Shown in pieces: positions 1,317-18,642 of a stretch of DNA of 64,000 bases. Source of the DNA: a phage; the sequence record PZ347775.1; one strand, written 5' to 3'. The notes beneath the pieces were generated by a model. The model was not told where the DNA came from and did no database searches. It worked only from the letters and a program-made list of their open reading frames with translations. Made by a program: the position numbers and the translations under genes. Within the stretch, counting starts at the first letter, position 1. The number at the start of each line of letters is the position of its first letter.

Positions 1317-1595
1317 TTATTCTTTAAATCTAATCAATTTATTCATAGACTTTGAAACTTCTGCACGAACCTCATGTAGGTTTTTAAGCTGTTCAAGACG
1401 TTGCTCATAGTAAGCAATTTCATCTTCTTCGAGACAGTCCTGTGAATCTTCTTTAAGATAACGTGCATAATCCTGGAAAGCTTTACGGACTACTTCCTGG
1501 AAGTCATCAAGACTTTGAATTTTCTTAGGAGCAACAGATACACGACGAGGGGCAGTATAATACTCATAACCAAACCCTGCGCTTAATTGAGCCAT
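1317..1595 (-). CDS. hypothetical protein (vs.3 position)
   Basis: ORF; start chosen at ATG 1595-1593 forming a TAATG overlap with upstream stop; ORF-track start at 1637 lies inside upstream gene. Confidence 0.55.
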
Positions 1596-1861
1596 TAATA
1601 TTTTTCCTCTGGTTGAAACACAGCACGACAAGCCCACATACTAGCTTCTTTGAGTTTCGTTTTAGCAATAGTTAACTGATCGATGCTTTCAGCATAATTC
1701 TTCGCGAATTCATAGTCTTCACAATTATTTAGCACTTCCCAGAATTCGTCGTATAAAGCATCAAAGATAAGTCCTAAACGAACTTCAGCGTCTTTGATTG
1801 CATTCACTTTACCGATTTTCTCTTCAGTATGGGGCTTATAACCTTTAATGTCTTCAATCAT
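1595..1861 (-). CDS. small helical protein at vs.4 position; candidate Acb2-like cyclic-oligonucleotide sponge
   Basis: 88 aa ORF, third gene downstream of GrcA-like vs.6 equivalent; assignment by gene order only. Confidence 0.5.
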
Positions 1862-2075
1862 ATTCTACTTCCTCACCAGTACATAAATCATATTCAACTA
1901 AACGAATAGGTTCATGAATGCCATATCCTTGAACAGAAATTTCTGTCGTAGGATAAATTCCACTAATATCACCCATATTCCACGCTTCATTAAATTGCTG
2001 TTCGCCTGAATTACTAAACCACTCGGCGAAAGCATTTAGCACATCTTTAGAACCTTCAATAATTATCTTTGCCAT
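1854..2075 (-). CDS. hypothetical protein (vs.5 position)
   Basis: 73 aa ORF tightly packed between neighbours. Confidence 0.5.
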   Translation of the reverse strand: MAKIIIEGSKDVLNAFAEWFSNSGEQQFNEAWNMGDISGIYPTTEISVQGYGIHEPIRLVEYDLCTGEEVEYD

Positions 2076-2449
2076 TACAGACTCTCGGTAAAGGTACGAG
2101 CAATAACGTCGCGCTGCTGTTCCGGAGTCAGAGAGTTAAAGCGAACTGCATATCCGGATACACGGATGGTCAGCTGCGGATATTTTTCCGGATGCTTAAC
2201 TGCATCTTCCAGAGTTTCGCGACGCAGAACGTTAACGTTCAGGTGTTGACCACCTTCAATTTTAACTGTAGGTTGTGGTTCAATTTCAATTTCACGGGCA
2301 TGCAAACCGTAGAAAATTTCCGGGTCTACAAAAGAGTCCTCTTTAAAAGTTTTAGAGACAATAATTCTTGCTTGAATACCGTCTTCAAAATAAATAGTAC
2401 CTTTATGCGTGCCTTCAAGAATTTGATATGCTTTCATATAACCTCTCAA
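2075..2449 (-). CDS. autonomous glycyl-radical cofactor (GrcA/YfiD-like; T4 vs.6 equivalent)
   Basis: 124 aa; C-terminal glycyl-radical motif [25 protein letters not shown] as in GrcA and pyruvate formate-lyase C-terminus. Confidence 0.85.
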
Positions 2450-2775
2450 TTAGAAAATAAATTTATCCAAGATTGCTCTTTAATTAAAAATGGCTCAGAA
2501 TCATATGCCATTAAACTTTGGGTGATTAGTCCTTTAAAAGGCCCATCAATAAATTCCATGGTAAAATATGGAATTTTATTCATTAATCTTGCATTAGGAG
2601 CAGTGCACAAAACTCTGCATCCTTTGAATACGCCTTTTTGTAATTTGTATTGCTTAGGGTAAAATTCGCTCAAGACGTTGTTATTTGCCAAAATTTCAAA
2701 ATGATTCACCAATTTATTTTTAATAGTTTTTGGCGAAAAATAAAGATATTCGAAAAGTTGCGTGTCTGTCATCAT
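2446..2775 (-). CDS. hypothetical protein (vs.7 position)
   Basis: start set at ATG 2775-2773 giving ATGA overlap with upstream stop 2774-2772. Confidence 0.55.
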
Positions 2776-3359
2776 TGCATTCCGATTACGAAAAACTGTG
2801 GACGAGTAATACCACCAATGCAACATTTACTATTGCAGCAGTAATGTACAGTGTCAATATGGACACTATAAATTTTATCCATATCGGGAGCTTTAACAGG
2901 CTCATCGATTATATACAAAATCCGCGAAAGCGATAAACCTCTGAACTTGCTTCCTTTATTACCGATAAAACTACGGACAGAATCGGTAAATAAGCGGAAT
3001 CGAATATCATCGCCAGAATAACGAGAAAATTCTTTTTTAATGTGGCCTGCAGAAATTTTAGCGTAAGCTGAAGTATTAGAAAGAACAATAACTGTTCCAC
3101 CATCATACAGCCAATTAGCAGCAAAGTTAGTCACAGCAGTTGATTTACCGGATTGTCTGCCACCATCTAATCGAAGTGTGCAATACTGCTTGAGTAAGTC
3201 TTCAAATGGTGGGATATAATCGTTTTTACAAATTTCTTCTACTCTAGCATCAGAATGGTGTGTAAAAGCATTCATCAGGGATAGATAAGGACCAGTTAAA
3301 AATGTTCTCATTTTATTCTCTCTAAATTTGGGCCATTCCATGGCGCATGAATTGTCCAT
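2772..3359 (-). CDS. P-loop NTPase of unknown function, sitting where T4 has vs.8/denV
   Basis: Walker A GGRQSGKST, Walker B-like LYIIDEP, Cys-rich tail HYCCNSKCC; start ambiguous (ATG at 3359, 3341 or 3311); no resemblance to endonuclease V. Confidence 0.6.
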   Translation of the reverse strand: MDNSCAMEWPKFRENKMRTFLTGPYLSLMNAFTHHSDARVEEICKNDYIPPFEDLLKQYCTLRLDGGRQSGKSTAVTNFAANWLYDGGTVIVLSNTSAYAKISAGHIKKEFSRYSGDDIRFRLFTDSVRSFIGNKGSKFRGLSLSRILYIIDEPVKAPDMDKIYSVHIDTVHYCCNSKCCIGGITRPQFFVIGMQ

Positions 3360-3464
3360 TTCTGTATTTACCCATTACCGCACTTGGGCTCGACCTTATT
3401 ACAGGTTGGCGGGAATCCCTCATAGAACCATGAGGTCCAGCTTGTTCCCATATTTCTTATTTGC

Positions 3465-3938
3465 TTATTTGAATGATTTGACGTACTGAATAGAGCCTTT
3501 GCTATTCACGAAAGCGATTTTACCATTTTTATTATACATGGTAGCAGTACGCTGATAGCCATAAGTTTGCTTACCAGATTGATAACCAACTAATGCAAAA
3601 TTATCTTCACCCATTTTATTCTGTTTAGCACGAATGCGTTCATGCCCATGCGCCATAAGAACCTTAGCATCACCAGTTGCAATGGATCTACGAGTTTTTT
3701 CATCTTCAACTGTATTAACAAAGTCGTCAAATGAATCAAATTTAGCATGGGATTTATTATACAGTTTTCCATCTACTGCATAATTGTATCCTTGTACATC
3801 CATCTCAACTTCTGTACCATCATCTAATACAGCAGTGATTTTTTGACCTTTTTTAAATTTCAAAAGATCAGTAAAAGATTCAGCAATAATTTGAGAATTA
3901 ATAGCTGCTTCAGTAATAAATTCTTGATATGTTTTCAT
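3465..3938 (-). CDS. internal protein with capsid-targeting sequence (IPII/IPIII locus)
   Basis: N-terminus MKTYQEFITEA matches the T4 internal-protein targeting leader with an (L/I)xE cleavage site. Confidence 0.75.
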   Translation of the reverse strand: MKTYQEFITEAAINSQIIAESFTDLLKFKKGQKITAVLDDGTEVEMDVQGYNYAVDGKLYNKSHAKFDSFDDFVNTVEDEKTRRSIATGDAKVLMAHGHERIRAKQNKMGEDNFALVGYQSGKQTYGYQRTATMYNKNGKIAFVNSKGSIQYVKSFK

Positions 3939-3954
3939 GTGTATCCTTTAATTT

Positions 3955-4272
3955 TTATTCTTTAGGGAAGTTTTTAGAATATGCATCATAAAGCTTATTT
4001 CCAATACGGCGGAAAACTCTAGCCGCAAAACGATTTTCTGGGTTTTTAATCATGATTTGCATCATATAAGTACCCGCGTCAGAAAGAGCTTCTTCATAGT
4101 ACCCGTTAATTTCTTTAAGAGTCCTACGTTTACCACCAGGACCATCAACAGTGATTTTCCATTTACCTGTAGAAGTGCGACTTGGCGGCTCAACTTGTTC
4201 AATCCAGATATAACCGCCTTCTACACGTTGTCCTTGGGCAGATTCTGCAATAAATTCTTTAAACGTTTTCAT
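3955..4272 (-). CDS. internal protein with capsid-targeting sequence (IPII/IPIII locus)
   Basis: N-terminus MKTFKEFIAESA; 105 aa; adjacent to lysozyme gene as in T4. Confidence 0.75.
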   Translation of the reverse strand: MKTFKEFIAESAQGQRVEGGYIWIEQVEPPSRTSTGKWKITVDGPGGKRRTLKEINGYYEEALSDAGTYMMQIMIKNPENRFAARVFRRIGNKLYDAYSKNFPKE

Positions 4273-4310
4273 ATGGTTCCTTTAAATATTTTAATTAGTA
4301 ACTATGAATA

Positions 4311-4339
4311 TACTATCACAGTTCTAGGAGAAAGTAAAC
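4311..4339 (-). promoter_or_regulatory. putative early promoter upstream of internal-protein gene
   Basis: minus strand GTTTAC followed about 17 nt later by TGTGATAGTAT; same module recurs at 8.7 kb and 12.1-12.9 kb. Confidence 0.4.
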
Positions 4340-4343
4340 AACT

Positions 4344-4874
<531 letters not shown>

Positions 4875-5330
4875 TTAAAAGAGGCTGTTCATTATTCGGT
4901 AAAGTGAAGGACCCATCACATATTGCCACTGAGTACGAGGAATAAGAGCAAAAGCATCCATCTCTGGAATCATAACACCATCTTTATTTTCAAAATAAGA
5001 CTCGCAATGGCAATTTCTAAACATCTCATGCTCTACTGGAATCGTATAATAAAATAACTGTAAGTCTTTATTACTAGAATATTTAAATACACCTAGGTCT
5101 TCTAGAAGGTCTGGATTATAATTATTAAAACCAGTCTCTTCTAAGCATTCTCTTCGTGCTGCATCTAGTGCGTTTAAATCAGAATTTTCTACGCGGCCCT
5201 TTGGAATATCCCAGCGATGTGCCATCATTCCAGGCTTACGAGAACCAGTAACTCGTCCCATAAATAAATCTTTATCTTCTGTCATAAAGATAATACCAGC
5301 TGATAATGTTTTCATTTTAATTTCCTGCAT
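4875..5330 (-). CDS. nudE: Nudix hydrolase NudE
   Basis: Nudix box GRVENSDLNALDAARRECLEETGF; alternative start at 5315 gives ATGA overlap with upstream stop. Confidence 0.85.
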   Translation of the reverse strand: MQEIKMKTLSAGIIFMTEDKDLFMGRVTGSRKPGMMAHRWDIPKGRVENSDLNALDAARRECLEETGFNNYNPDLLEDLGVFKYSSNKDLQLFYYTIPVEHEMFRNCHCESYFENKDGVMIPEMDAFALIPRTQWQYVMGPSLYRIMNSLF

Positions 5331-16931: not shown

Positions 16932-18642
16932 TAACCTTAATTGGTTTGTTGGTGTTGTTGAAGATAGAATGGACCCATTAAAATTAGGTCGTGTTCGTGT
17001 TCGTGTAGTTGGTCTGCATCCACCTCAAAGAGCACAAGGCGACGTAATGGGTATTCCAACTGATAAATTACCATGGATGTCGGTTATTCAACCTATAACT
17101 TCTGCAGCAATGTCTGGAATTGGAGGCTCCGTTACTGGTCCGGTAGAAGGAACTAGAGTTTATGGTCATTTTTTAGACAAATGGAAAACTAACGGAATTG
17201 TCCTTGGCACATATGGCGGAATAGTTCGCGAAAAACCTAATAGACTTGAAGGATTTTCTGACCCAACTGGACAGTATCCTAGACGTCTAGGAAATGATAC
17301 TAACGTATTAAACCAAGGCGGAGAAGTAGGATATGATTCGTCTTCTAATATTATCCAAGATAGCAATCTAGACACTGCGATAAATCCTGATGATAGACCA
17401 CTATCAGAAATTCCAACTGATGATAATCCAAATATGTCAATGGCTGAAATGCTTCGCCGTGATGAAGGATTAAGACTAAAAGTTTATTGGGATACTGAAG
17501 GATATCCGACAATTGGCATTGGTCATCTTATCATGAAGCAACCAGTTCGTGATATGGCCCAAATTAATAAAGTTTTATCAAAACAAGTTGGTCGTGAAAT
17601 TACCGGAAATCCAGGTTCTATTACAATGGAAGAAGCGGTAGCTTTATTTGAACGTGATTTGGCTGATATGCAACGTGACATTAAATCGCATTCTAAAGTT
17701 GGCCCAGTTTGGCAAGCAGTTAATCGTTCTCGTCAAATGGCATTAGAAAATATGGCATTTCAGATGGGTGTTGGCGGTGTAGCTAAATTTAACACAATGT
17801 TAACTGCTATGTTAGCCGGAGATTGGGAAAAAGCATATAAAGCTGGTCGTGATTCATTGTGGTATCAACAAACAAAAGGCCGTGCATCCCGTGTTACCAT
17901 GATTATTCTTACAGGGAATTTGGAATCATACGGTATTGAAGTGAAAACACCGGCTAGGTCTTTGTCAGCAATGGCTGCTACTGTAGCAAAGTCTTCTGAT
18001 CCAGCTGACCCTCCTATTCCGAATGATTCGAGAATTTTATTTAAAGAACCTGTTTCTTCATATAAAGGTGAATATCCGTATGTTCACACAATGGAAACTG
18101 AAAGCGGTCATATTCAGGAATTTGACGATACCCCGGGACAAGAACGATACAGATTAGTTCATCCGACTGGAACATATGAGGAAGTATCACCGTCAGGAAG
18201 AAGAACAAGAAAAACTGTTGATAATTTGTATGATATAACAAATGCTGATGGTAATTTTTTGGTAGCTGGCGATAAAAAGACTAACGTCGGTGGGTCAGAA
18301 ATTTATTACAACATGGATAATCGTCTCCACCAAATAGATGGAAGCAATACAATATTTGTACGTGGCGATGAAACTAAGACAGTTGAAGGTAATGGAACTA
18401 TCCTAGTTAAAGGTAATGTTACTATTGTAGTTGAAGGTAATGCTGACATTACAGTTAAAGGGGATGCTACTACTTTAGTTGAAGGAAATCAAACTAATAC
18501 AGTAAATGGAAATCTTTCTTGGAAAGTTGCTGGGACAGTTGATTGGGACGTTGGTGGTGATTGGACAGAAAAAATGGCATCTATGAGTTCTATTTCATCT
18601 GGTCAATACACAATTGATGGATCGAGGGTTGACATTGGCTAA
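16915..18642 (+). CDS. 5: baseplate hub / tail lysozyme gp5
   Basis: 575 aa; central lysozyme domain resembling gene e product; C-terminal VxGxxxxx beta-helix repeats. Confidence 0.95.
   Translation: MEMISNNLNWFVGVVEDRMDPLKLGRVRVRVVGLHPPQRAQGDVMGIPTDKLPWMSVIQPITSAAMSGIGGSVTGPVEGTRVYGHFLDKWKTNGIVLGTYGGIVREKPNRLEGFSDPTGQYPRRLGNDTNVLNQGGEVGYDSSSNIIQDSNLDTAINPDDRPLSEIPTDDNPNMSMAEMLRRDEGLRLKVYWDTEGYPTIGIGHLIMKQPVRDMAQINKVLSKQVGREITGNPGSITMEEAVALFERDLADMQRDIKSHSKVGPVWQAVNRSRQMALENMAFQMGVGGVAKFNTMLTAMLAGDWEKAYKAGRDSLWYQQTKGRASRVTMIILTGNLESYGIEVKTPARSLSAMAATVAKSSDPADPPIPNDSRILFKEPVSSYKGEYPYVHTMETESGHIQEFDDTPGQERYRLVHPTGTYEEVSPSGRRTRKTVDNLYDITNADGNFLVAGDKKTNVGGSEIYYNMDNRLHQIDGSNTIFVRGDETKTVEGNGTILVKGNVTIVVEGNADITVKGDATTLVEGNQTNTVNGNLSWKVAGTVDWDVGGDWTEKMASMSSISSGQYTIDGSRVDIG

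Follow-up and report, generated by a model that had tools for sequence, protein, structure and literature searches.

Introduction

T-even phages lacking denV, the gene of the DNA-repair enzyme endonuclease V, have been known since the UV-sensitivity genetics of T2 and T4, and T2, which has no v-gene function, shows roughly twice the UV sensitivity of T4. The gene order in T4 is e-ipIII-ipII-denV-vs.8, placing denV between vs.8 and the internal-protein (ip) genes. For T4-type phages, the shuffling of cassettes at promoter/stem-loop (PeSL) sequences has been documented (Arbiol et al. 2010; Comeau et al. 2014; PMC2839356, PMC4122927). This study deals with the corresponding region of a phage DNA stretch of 64,000 nucleotides (nt) (record PZ347775.1, referred to as the window), featuring a P-loop open reading frame (ORF) of 195 amino acids (aa), a space of 105 nt upstream of it, and no recognizable denV. 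An earlier note, made from the sequence of this DNA, had placed the P-loop ORF where T4 has denV and had proposed the loss or replacement of the repair gene. Our results indicate that, very probably, the ORF represents the orthologue of T4 vs.8 and no substitute for denV, and that the absence of denV reflects the make-up of the variable segment from e to vs.8, in which ip10 and ip4 are the only cassettes. The part worth following is the supposed gap, occupied by a conserved RNA-like element that the T4 reference genome annotates as protein-coding.

The genes of the window are encoded on the minus strand in the order of the T4 map (vs.1 with an SLT domain, regB, vs.3 to vs.7, vs.8, ip4, ip10, e, and nudE), and the window is a segment of a Tequatrovirus (T4-like phage). 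Window positions 2000-4900 and 1-25000 were compared with 50,697 phage records by megablast, and hundreds of Tequatrovirus genomes were matched. For the first query, local segment identity reached 96.8%, the best colinear match being HZ_ZJUN4 (96.7%); over 25 kb, ECO07P3 was the closest relative (98%). The visible sequence covers 64 kb of a genome of approximately 167 kb, the remaining 100 kb or so being outside view.

Identity of the P-Loop Gene and Absence of denV

The P-loop ORF (2772..3359, minus strand, ATG start) is present in the mechanical ORF list and encodes a Walker A motif (LDGGRQSGKSTAV), a Walker B motif with the Asp-Glu pair (SRILYIIDEPV) and a Cys-rich tail (HYCCNSKCCIGG, containing HYCCNSKCC). 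The next minus-strand ORF upstream is ip4 (3465..3938), so that the space between the two comprises exactly 105 nt (3360..3464). To this extent, the earlier description was accurate. When T4 Vs.8 (NP_049732) was searched against all six frames of the window using tblastn, the ORF was recovered at E 4e-119, with 90% identity over 195 aa and 96% over a core of 179 aa. Furthermore, PHROG 1488 matched at E 1.7e-78 along profile positions 2-177 of 177, only from ORF residue 19 onwards. The motifs DGGRQSGK and IIxEP, being invariant in alignments of the Vs.8 family, both occur in the window protein, and the gene resides where members of this family are located, namely just upstream of vs.7, downstream of the ip/denV segment, and on the early-gene strand. 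Its neighbours, including the overlap with vs.7, its Walker A and B motifs, and its C-terminal FFVIGMQ are those of T4 Vs.8. Judged by sequence and synteny, the ORF is the direct orthologue of T4 vs.8, residing in vs.8's own place. The alternative left undecided in the earlier note, i.e., vs.8 equivalent or denV replacement, is thus settled in favour of the former, and the proposed location at the denV position is not supported, considering the ATGA overlap with vs.7 and the coexistence of both genes in relatives.

The observation that no ORF in the window resembles T4 endonuclease V was corroborated. Searching all six frames for DenV of T4 and of JLBYU22 (78% identical to each other) with tblastn yielded a best E value of 0.3 in the 64-kb window, and the Pfam family Pyr_excise (PF03013), matching the control DenV of JLBYU22 at 2e-13, was not matched by the window vs-cluster proteins scanned. 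Two alternative denV sites are known from the relatives: vs.8|ip in T4 and e|ip in JLBYU22 (e-denV-ip10-ip4-vs.8). In the DNA alignment, homology between T4 and the window resumes at approximately position 3449, directly past the position of the T4 denV stop codon. JLBYU22 holds its denV of 417 nt exactly at window position 4302/4301 in the e-ip10 spacer alignment, where the window has nothing. Both denV sites are thus empty, and the segment between e and vs.8 carries only ip10 and ip4.

This arrangement is shared by several T-even genomes. PP01 (annotated as vs.8-ipIV-ip10-e) and HZ_ZJUN4 feature the order e-ip10-ip4-leader-vs.8 without denV, as in the window, and T2 features e-ip4-leader-vs.8, also without denV. 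The denV-less T-even genomes (T2, PP01, HZ_ZJUN4, G50, and others) are 96-97% identical to the window. Among the 40 best-matching records, 26 were colinear with the window in one piece, and 14 were split in two, 11 of the latter being annotated with a denV-type gene under the match. The internal-protein region is plastic and known to be polymorphic for denV, and the finding is an ordinary one: denV-less genomes are common in databases, and the denV/vs.8 observation as originally stated changes little. Of the phrase 'loss or replacement', the absence stands and the replacement does not; 'loss' is better put as a different cassette set (ip10 and ip4, no denV) in a known hyperplastic region. By analogy, the phage is expected to show the UV sensitivity of T2 and to depend on recombinational repair and on that of its host.

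Two other explanations have to be considered for the missing repair gene. Relocation of denV to a place outside the window is conceivable in principle, since the window is well under half of the genome and denV occupies more than one position among relatives. However, in every relative examined, denV resides within the segment from e to vs.8, lying wholly inside the window, and when the complete genomes of T2 and of HZ_ZJUN4, whose arrangement is that of the window, were searched by tblastn, no DenV was detected; relocation is accordingly regarded as very improbable. The earlier note had named a vs.8 homologue combined with denV elsewhere as the finding that would overturn it; the homologue was found, and denV elsewhere was not. 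A non-orthologous functional replacement, the P-loop protein being a different repair enzyme, might be suspected because vs.8 adjoins the denV position of T4 and its product has the ATPase fold of nucleic-acid enzymes. Nevertheless, vs.8 and denV are found together in T4, JLBYU22, Mosigvirus mar005p1 (denV 1.2 kb upstream of vs.8), and Dhakavirus B-01 (denV directly before vs.8); since the genes coexist in these relatives, the P-loop protein cannot be a denV replacement. Moreover, Vs.8 is present in approximately 1,010 phage records irrespective of denV and consists of a single RecA-like domain of 179 aa without a glycosylase or nuclease domain, making replacement hardly credible. Weighing against the preferred reading, i.e., a vs.8 orthologue and a cassette set devoid of denV, are the facts that 64 kb of approximately 167 kb are visible, leaving room for a denV copy elsewhere, that the nearest whole-genome relative is just 96-98% identical, and that the locus is mosaic.

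A Candidate Structured RNA Upstream of vs.8

The supposed gap is delimited downstream by the start of vs.8, which had to be reconsidered. Residue M17 of the 195-aa ORF is invariant in 23 homologues down to 40% identity, and the residues before it cannot be aligned as protein. Upstream of the ATG at position 3311, indels of 8 nt and 1 nt distinguish T4, PP01, JLBYU22, and the window, so the upstream frames differ, and a GAGAG ribosome-binding site precedes this ATG. The T4 record, differing from the window, starts 40 codons further upstream (219 aa). In the frame annotated there, a TAG stop codon is found in the window, PP01, HZ_ZJUN4, and JLBYU22, and the 219-aa annotation arises from a TAG-to-TAT change together with a 9-nt tandem duplication (CTTATAGAG) occurring in T4 only (T4 locus 4254-4913). 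Based on these alignments, the true start of vs.8 is most likely the ATG at 3311. Because the family begins at M17, translation of the 195-aa ORF probably does not include its first 16 codons; the length of the ORF noted earlier is correct, and the protein is probably shorter. The T4 extension runs through the RNA-like element and is probably an annotation artefact.

The space of 105 nt is correct in size and is not empty, being occupied by a conserved element at positions 3312..3436. From ip4 to the ATG of vs.8, T4, PP01, JLBYU22, and the window hardly differ, and this stretch is among the best conserved parts of the locus; its T4 equivalent (NC_000866.4, approximately 64,801-64,925, minus strand) is annotated as Vs.8 coding sequence. 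The core of the element reads CCUGUAAUAAGGUCGAGC...GCGGUAA. A core of 40 nt (CCAACCUGUAAUAAGGUCGAGCCCAAGUGCGGUAAUGGGU) is near-invariant, with single-base differences, in a Mosigvirus, Salmonella phage S16, and a Dhakavirus, despite their Vs.8 proteins being just 63-89% identical to that of the window. In 34 of 35 loci fetched by means of the Vs.8 protein alone, the core was present on the same strand with at most three mismatches. Its distance to vs.8 was usually about 100 nt; where an ip-like gene intervened, as was sometimes the case, it was about 500 nt. A covariance model (R1) built from 19 'long-type' copies matched the window once (3312-3436, 82.6 bits, E 5e-18) and the whole HZ_ZJUN4 genome once. 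The element was detected by blastn in 1,118 phage records, and no RNA feature was annotated at its position in 40 records sampled across the blastn ranking, the element being either unannotated or overlapped by 'hypothetical protein' calls. In two loci from some Klebsiella/Enterobacter T4-like phages (L050, 1231-1486, and L061, 1238-1493), two tandem copies precede vs.8, scoring approximately 100 bits and 60-64 bits.

Several results suggest that the element folds as RNA (helices in Table 1). In an alignment made with MAFFT only, 91% of cells were paired, compared to 24-48% for slid partners, and four pairs had changed on both sides, a value reached by 5 of 500 shuffles. In the model-fitted alignment of 55 matches, the paired fraction was 92.8%, with double changes in 14 of 20 pairs (0 of 500 shuffles). 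An unsupervised scan of mutual information with average product correction ranked three neighbouring P2 pairs at the top (77-152, 75-155, and 76-154), which are 100% canonical, and up to five pair types (A-U, U-A, U-G, C-G, and G-C) were encountered among the top pairs. Wobble pairs occur on the vs.8-sense strand only (P1 of PP01, P2 of the window, and P2 of L086). Thus, the generic mark of a structured RNA, pairs kept by compensatory changes, appears to be present. The proposed architecture comprises hairpin P1, helix P2 closing the invariant hairpin ACCU-GURANA-AGGU and a conserved strand CNAGC-N5-6-GCGRUAA, and a 3' hairpin.

Other results count against a folded RNA. Folding of single sequences was no better than that of shuffles (z = 0.01), and RNAalifold obtained a weak consensus on the MAFFT alignment (-9.6 kcal/mol, covariation term 0.01). 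Furthermore, the strongest covariation counts were obtained from an alignment fitted with the structure model itself, and most compensatory changes trace to few lineages. The GUAA/UUAC hairpin put forward by RNAalifold was rejected, as it is invariant in the long forms, does not exist in the Tequatrovirus form, and could not form together with P2, which covaries. All things considered, the element is likely to be a real structured RNA.

No match to Rfam 15 (4,227 families) was obtained at E <= 1 over window positions 2600-4500, nor on the element in eight further loci, six to seven of which bear a copy; weak tmRNA_permuted matches fall 200-400 nt off the element, in the neighbouring cassette. 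When the element was compared by eye with the cores of the hammerhead and twister ribozymes, with the J11/12 strand of RNase P (GUGCGGUAA), and with pseudoknot PK2 of transfer-messenger RNA (tmRNA), only short resemblances were noted, and these were dismissed, Rfam being negative. Whether the element is both real and an undescribed class of structured phage RNA is an evenly balanced question, a catalogue of 10,006 candidate viral RNAs (PMC10690425) lying outside the comparison.

The element also occurs without vs.8. In unrelated phages, it is encoded on the same strand as tRNA clusters, at a distance of 170-370 nt. In contigs resembling Klebsiella siphoviruses, a long inverted repeat brackets the element, which adjoins a unit with a tmRNA-like tag frame (ANEEMYLAVA*). 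This unit (L147:1737-1900, plus strand, with equivalents in L086, L107, L154, and L176) contains the tag frame GCA AAC GAA GAA AUG UAU CUG GCA GUA GCC UAA, is bracketed by long inverted repeats (GUGCUCUU..CGUUGUG / CACAACAGGUAAGAGCA), adjoins the leader-type element and tRNA genes, and yields weak matches to Rfam tmRNA_permuted. By blastn, similar sequences were found in 799 phage records (Ackermannviridae, Felixounavirus, and P1 among them), being unannotated among the matches listed. In four divergent metagenomic phages (e.g., L027, 636-1148, and L034, 8541-9037), the element is followed by a different gene, encoding a basic protein (MxDKKEKTKKRRRRGRPLKEE...), with a tRNA cluster close downstream; in L027, one ORF continues from the element into this gene. 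Concerning a bacterial or archaeal origin, the core pattern was found in only two contigs of metagenome-assembled genomes among 185,579 species genomes, for which the covariance model gave nothing and a weak score of 21 bits, respectively. Because the core pattern is near-absent from bacterial and archaeal genomes, no host origin is evident. Scanning with the degenerate 14-base pattern returned mostly chance matches, the flanking GCGRTAA being present in only 17 newly fetched loci.

Two further readings of the stretch were weighed. It could be protein-coding, either as a longer N-terminus of Vs.8, as annotated in T4, or as an ORF of 33 codons (MRDSRQPVIRSSPSAVMGKYRNGQFMRHGMAQI), which is annotated in the T2 record, or of 27 codons (MGTSWTSWFYEGFPPTCNKVEPKCGNG); moreover, one divergent phage has a 44-aa ORF across the core with a similar peptide (PATCNKVEQKCGNG). 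However, the stop codon described above interrupts the long form in the window, PP01, HZ_ZJUN4, and JLBYU22, the 33-codon ORF would have to start within the P1 stem and has no Shine-Dalgarno sequence, and the ATG of the 27-codon frame is absent in T4. In addition, none of the frames stays open in at least five lineages, whose variable loop has lost single nucleotides, every synonymous position of the core is invariant across genera, and G-U pairs are confined to one strand, rendering a coding function improbable. Alternatively, the element might act as DNA, i.e., as a recombination linker, protein-binding site, or promoter, since it borders the cassette-exchange region, its 5' part travels with a T4-like denV (97.8%) in the Dhakavirus while the vs.8 beside it is 63.5% identical, and many long-type copies hold the -35-like GTTTAC. 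However, the Tequatrovirus form has no such promoter-like hexamer; pairing in four helices is maintained by compensatory changes (91-93% of cells paired versus 24-50% for slid partners), wobble pairs are tolerated on one strand only, and, in unrelated phages, the element is found within tRNA gene clusters on the tRNA strand. A function as DNA is therefore considered unlikely.

Assuming a structured RNA, the element would be transcribed together with vs.8, either as a 5' leader or as a small RNA of its own. It is proposed to occur once per genome upstream of vs.8 throughout the Tevenvirinae and, elsewhere, as a stand-alone element beside tRNA genes or the tmRNA-like tag unit. Such a distribution points to a small RNA acting in trans, or to a leader that binds a ligand or a protein and possibly works with the RecA-like ATPase Vs.8. 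If the element is a functional RNA, one of the most intensively studied viruses would contain a non-coding element so far unrecognized, which would also provide a handle on the function of Vs.8.

Predicted Class and Possible Role of Vs.8

The product of vs.8, an already known conserved ORF and accessory gene of the early region, was modelled by AlphaFold as one alpha/beta domain with a predicted local distance difference test (pLDDT) score of 82. The features of P-loop NTPases of the additional strand, conserved E (ASCE) division are recognizable in its motifs and predicted fold: Walker A GxxxxGK[ST], Walker B hhhhD[DE], and a RecA-like beta-sheet core. The Walker A motif is of the terminase/helicase type (G-R-Q-S-G-K-S/T), and Walker B corresponds to hhhhDE. 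A profile search of 1.84 billion representatives retrieved only about 50 clusters, nearly all of them stand-alone proteins of 160-185 aa, and tblastn detected Vs.8 in the records counted above, with or without denV.

Vs.8 is most likely an enzyme binding and hydrolysing ATP, with nucleic acid as its substrate. We infer that it is a minimal nucleic-acid-associated ATPase in an accessory/anti-defence neighbourhood, vs.4 encoding an Acb2/Tad1 domain and the ip genes adjoining. Against this assignment, it must be noted that searches of Pfam, NCBIfam, PADLOC, and PDB sequences gave only generic AAA/terminase matches, all of them sub-threshold, that every family match except PHROG 1488 is below its curated threshold, and that literature searches gave neither experimental work nor publications dealing with what Vs.8 does.

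Two more specific assignments were rejected. A large terminase subunit is not supported by the Pfam Terminase_6N score of 14.8 bits (cut-off 22), the lack of an RNase H-like nuclease domain, the size of 179 aa, and the one-domain model. For helicases of superfamilies 1 and 2 (SF1/SF2), two tandem RecA domains are required, and only the RecA1-like domain aligns (108-144 residues). Compared to the terminase T4 gp17 and to the SF1/SF2 RecA1 domain, Vs.8 is a single domain of 179 aa without nuclease, lid, or second RecA domain; the window phage has its own gp17. The Cys-rich tail pointed out previously is present, as stated above, and is conserved in close relatives only, the cysteines being gone in family members below approximately 60% identity. 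It falls into a low-confidence part of the model (pLDDT < 50 at residues 162-168), and family-wide conserved cysteines, as expected of a zinc-binding cluster, were not found.

Features of the Locus and Annotation of Relatives

The features of the locus are compiled in Table 1. The ip4 gene was also considered as T4 ipII or ipIII, which proved not to be the case, the matches being DUF7412 and PHROG 3155 instead.

Table 1. Features between vs.7 and gene e in the window, and proposed helices of the leader element
Feature	Position	Strand	Remarks
vs.7	2446..2775	-	Start overlaps vs.8 stop (ATGA) as in T4; PHROG 2049 E 4.6e-54; T4 and PP01 annotation; DNA alignment
vs.8 as most likely translated	2772..3311	-	179 aa plus stop; single RecA-like P-loop ATPase domain; Walker A GGRQSGKS, Walker B LYIIDE
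Probably spurious 5' extension of 195-aa ORF	3312..3359	-	16 codons; part of conserved leader element
Conserved RNA-like element, ~125 nt	3312..3436	-	Candidate structured RNA occupying the '105-nt gap'
Proposed helix P1	3435-3430 with 3423-3418	-	CCUCAU/AUGAGG
Proposed helix P2	3409-3407 with 3374-3372	-	CCA/UGG; alternative register 3413-3410 with 3374-3371
Proposed helix P3	3406-3403 with 3396-3393	-	ACCU/AGGU, loop GUAAUA
Proposed helix P4	3344-3341 with 3335-3332	-	GCCA/UGGC
ip4 stop/leader junction	3437..3464	-	Empty T4-type denV site; DNA alignment and upstream alignment of 9 phages
ip4, internal virion protein gene	3465..3938	-	157 aa; Pfam DUF7412 E 6e-96; PHROG 3155 'internal virion protein' E 6e-102; ipIV in PP01 annotation
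ip10, internal head protein gene	3955..4272	-	105 aa; PHROG 3966; ip10 in PP01 and JLBYU22 annotation
e-ip10 spacer	4273..4343	-	Empty JLBYU22-type denV site; junction 4302/4301
Gene e (T4 lysozyme)	4344..4838	-	Upstream border of variable ip/denV region; ORF list and relatives' annotation

Among the neighbouring genes, vs.4 (window 1595-1861, minus strand) matches the Pfam Acb2/Tad1 hairpin domain (E 1e-19), suggesting a cyclic-nucleotide-sponge anti-defence gene at a distance of 1 kb from vs.8. The vs.6 gene (window 2075-2437, minus strand) encodes a stand-alone domain of the glycyl-radical type resembling GrcA/YfiD (motif RVSGYAVRF; E 3e-18 to Pfam Gly_radical).

In JLBYU22, two genes are likely to be misannotated: vs.8 (2271-2858) is labelled 'putative large terminase subunit', and vs.3 (818-1096) 'putative pyrimidine dimer DNA glycosylase', vs.3 of the window being without a Pyr_excise match. 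Together with the probable vs.8 start at ATG 3311, the replacement of these two labels results in three annotation corrections. In the T2 record (PV648363.1), vs.8 (T2 locus 2501-3033) is broken by two frameshifts. Since hoc and other genes are also fragmented in this record, a sequencing error is as probable as a pseudogene, and the frameshifts were set aside as a sign of vs.8 being dispensable.

Taken together, the earlier observation was correct, and its interpretation half right.

Comparison with Known Cassette Systems and RNAs

In T4, PP01, and JLBYU22, ip and denV cassettes are preceded by an early-promoter-like TTTACT-N17-TAGTAT followed by a stem-loop, and cassettes vary among close relatives, as is typical of PeSL cassettes. 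With respect to the PeSL border (TTTACW-N17-TAYWAT plus stem-loop), the promoter-like part is present in the e-ip10 spacer of the window (TTTACT at 4338-4333, 17 nt, TAGTAT at 4315-4310); a generic sigma-70 scan did not list TTTACT-N17-TAGTAT (4338-4310) among its predictions. The stem-loop is intact in JLBYU22, PP01, and T4 and truncated in the window: its spacer is 17 nt shorter than those of PP01 and T4, which have TTGCTTGAAGAGACAAA there, so that the 3' arm is gone. According to the feature table, HZ_ZJUN4 features the same spacer of 71 nt. According to the published explanation of such variation in T4-type phages, cassettes would be gained and lost by recombination between short flanking PeSL repeats; in the e-ip10 spacer of the window, the arm missing from the stem-loop would have disappeared precisely where denV is inserted in JLBYU22. 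The window thus differs from intact PeSL borders in the deletion of this arm, and exchange is deduced from junction anatomy, no recombination intermediate having been seen, which weighs against this mechanism.

In ECO07P3 (17199-17710), a deletion fuses DenV residues 1-76 to IpIII residues 95-192, the remnant being annotated as two genes, 'endonuclease V' and 'internal protein III'; this fusion represents an independent route to a DenV-less phage. In Dhakavirus Esco_phi_B-01 (1946-2457), DenV is 97.8% identical to that of T4, the first 23 codons' worth of the leader is 91% identical, and the adjacent Vs.8 is 63.5% identical, suggesting a recent lateral transfer of the denV cassette with a crossover inside the leader.

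Compared to known RNA families, the element upstream of vs.8 resembles cis-regulatory RNAs of 5' untranslated regions by its position, and it resembles the small stable phage RNAs by its tRNA-cluster context in other phages.

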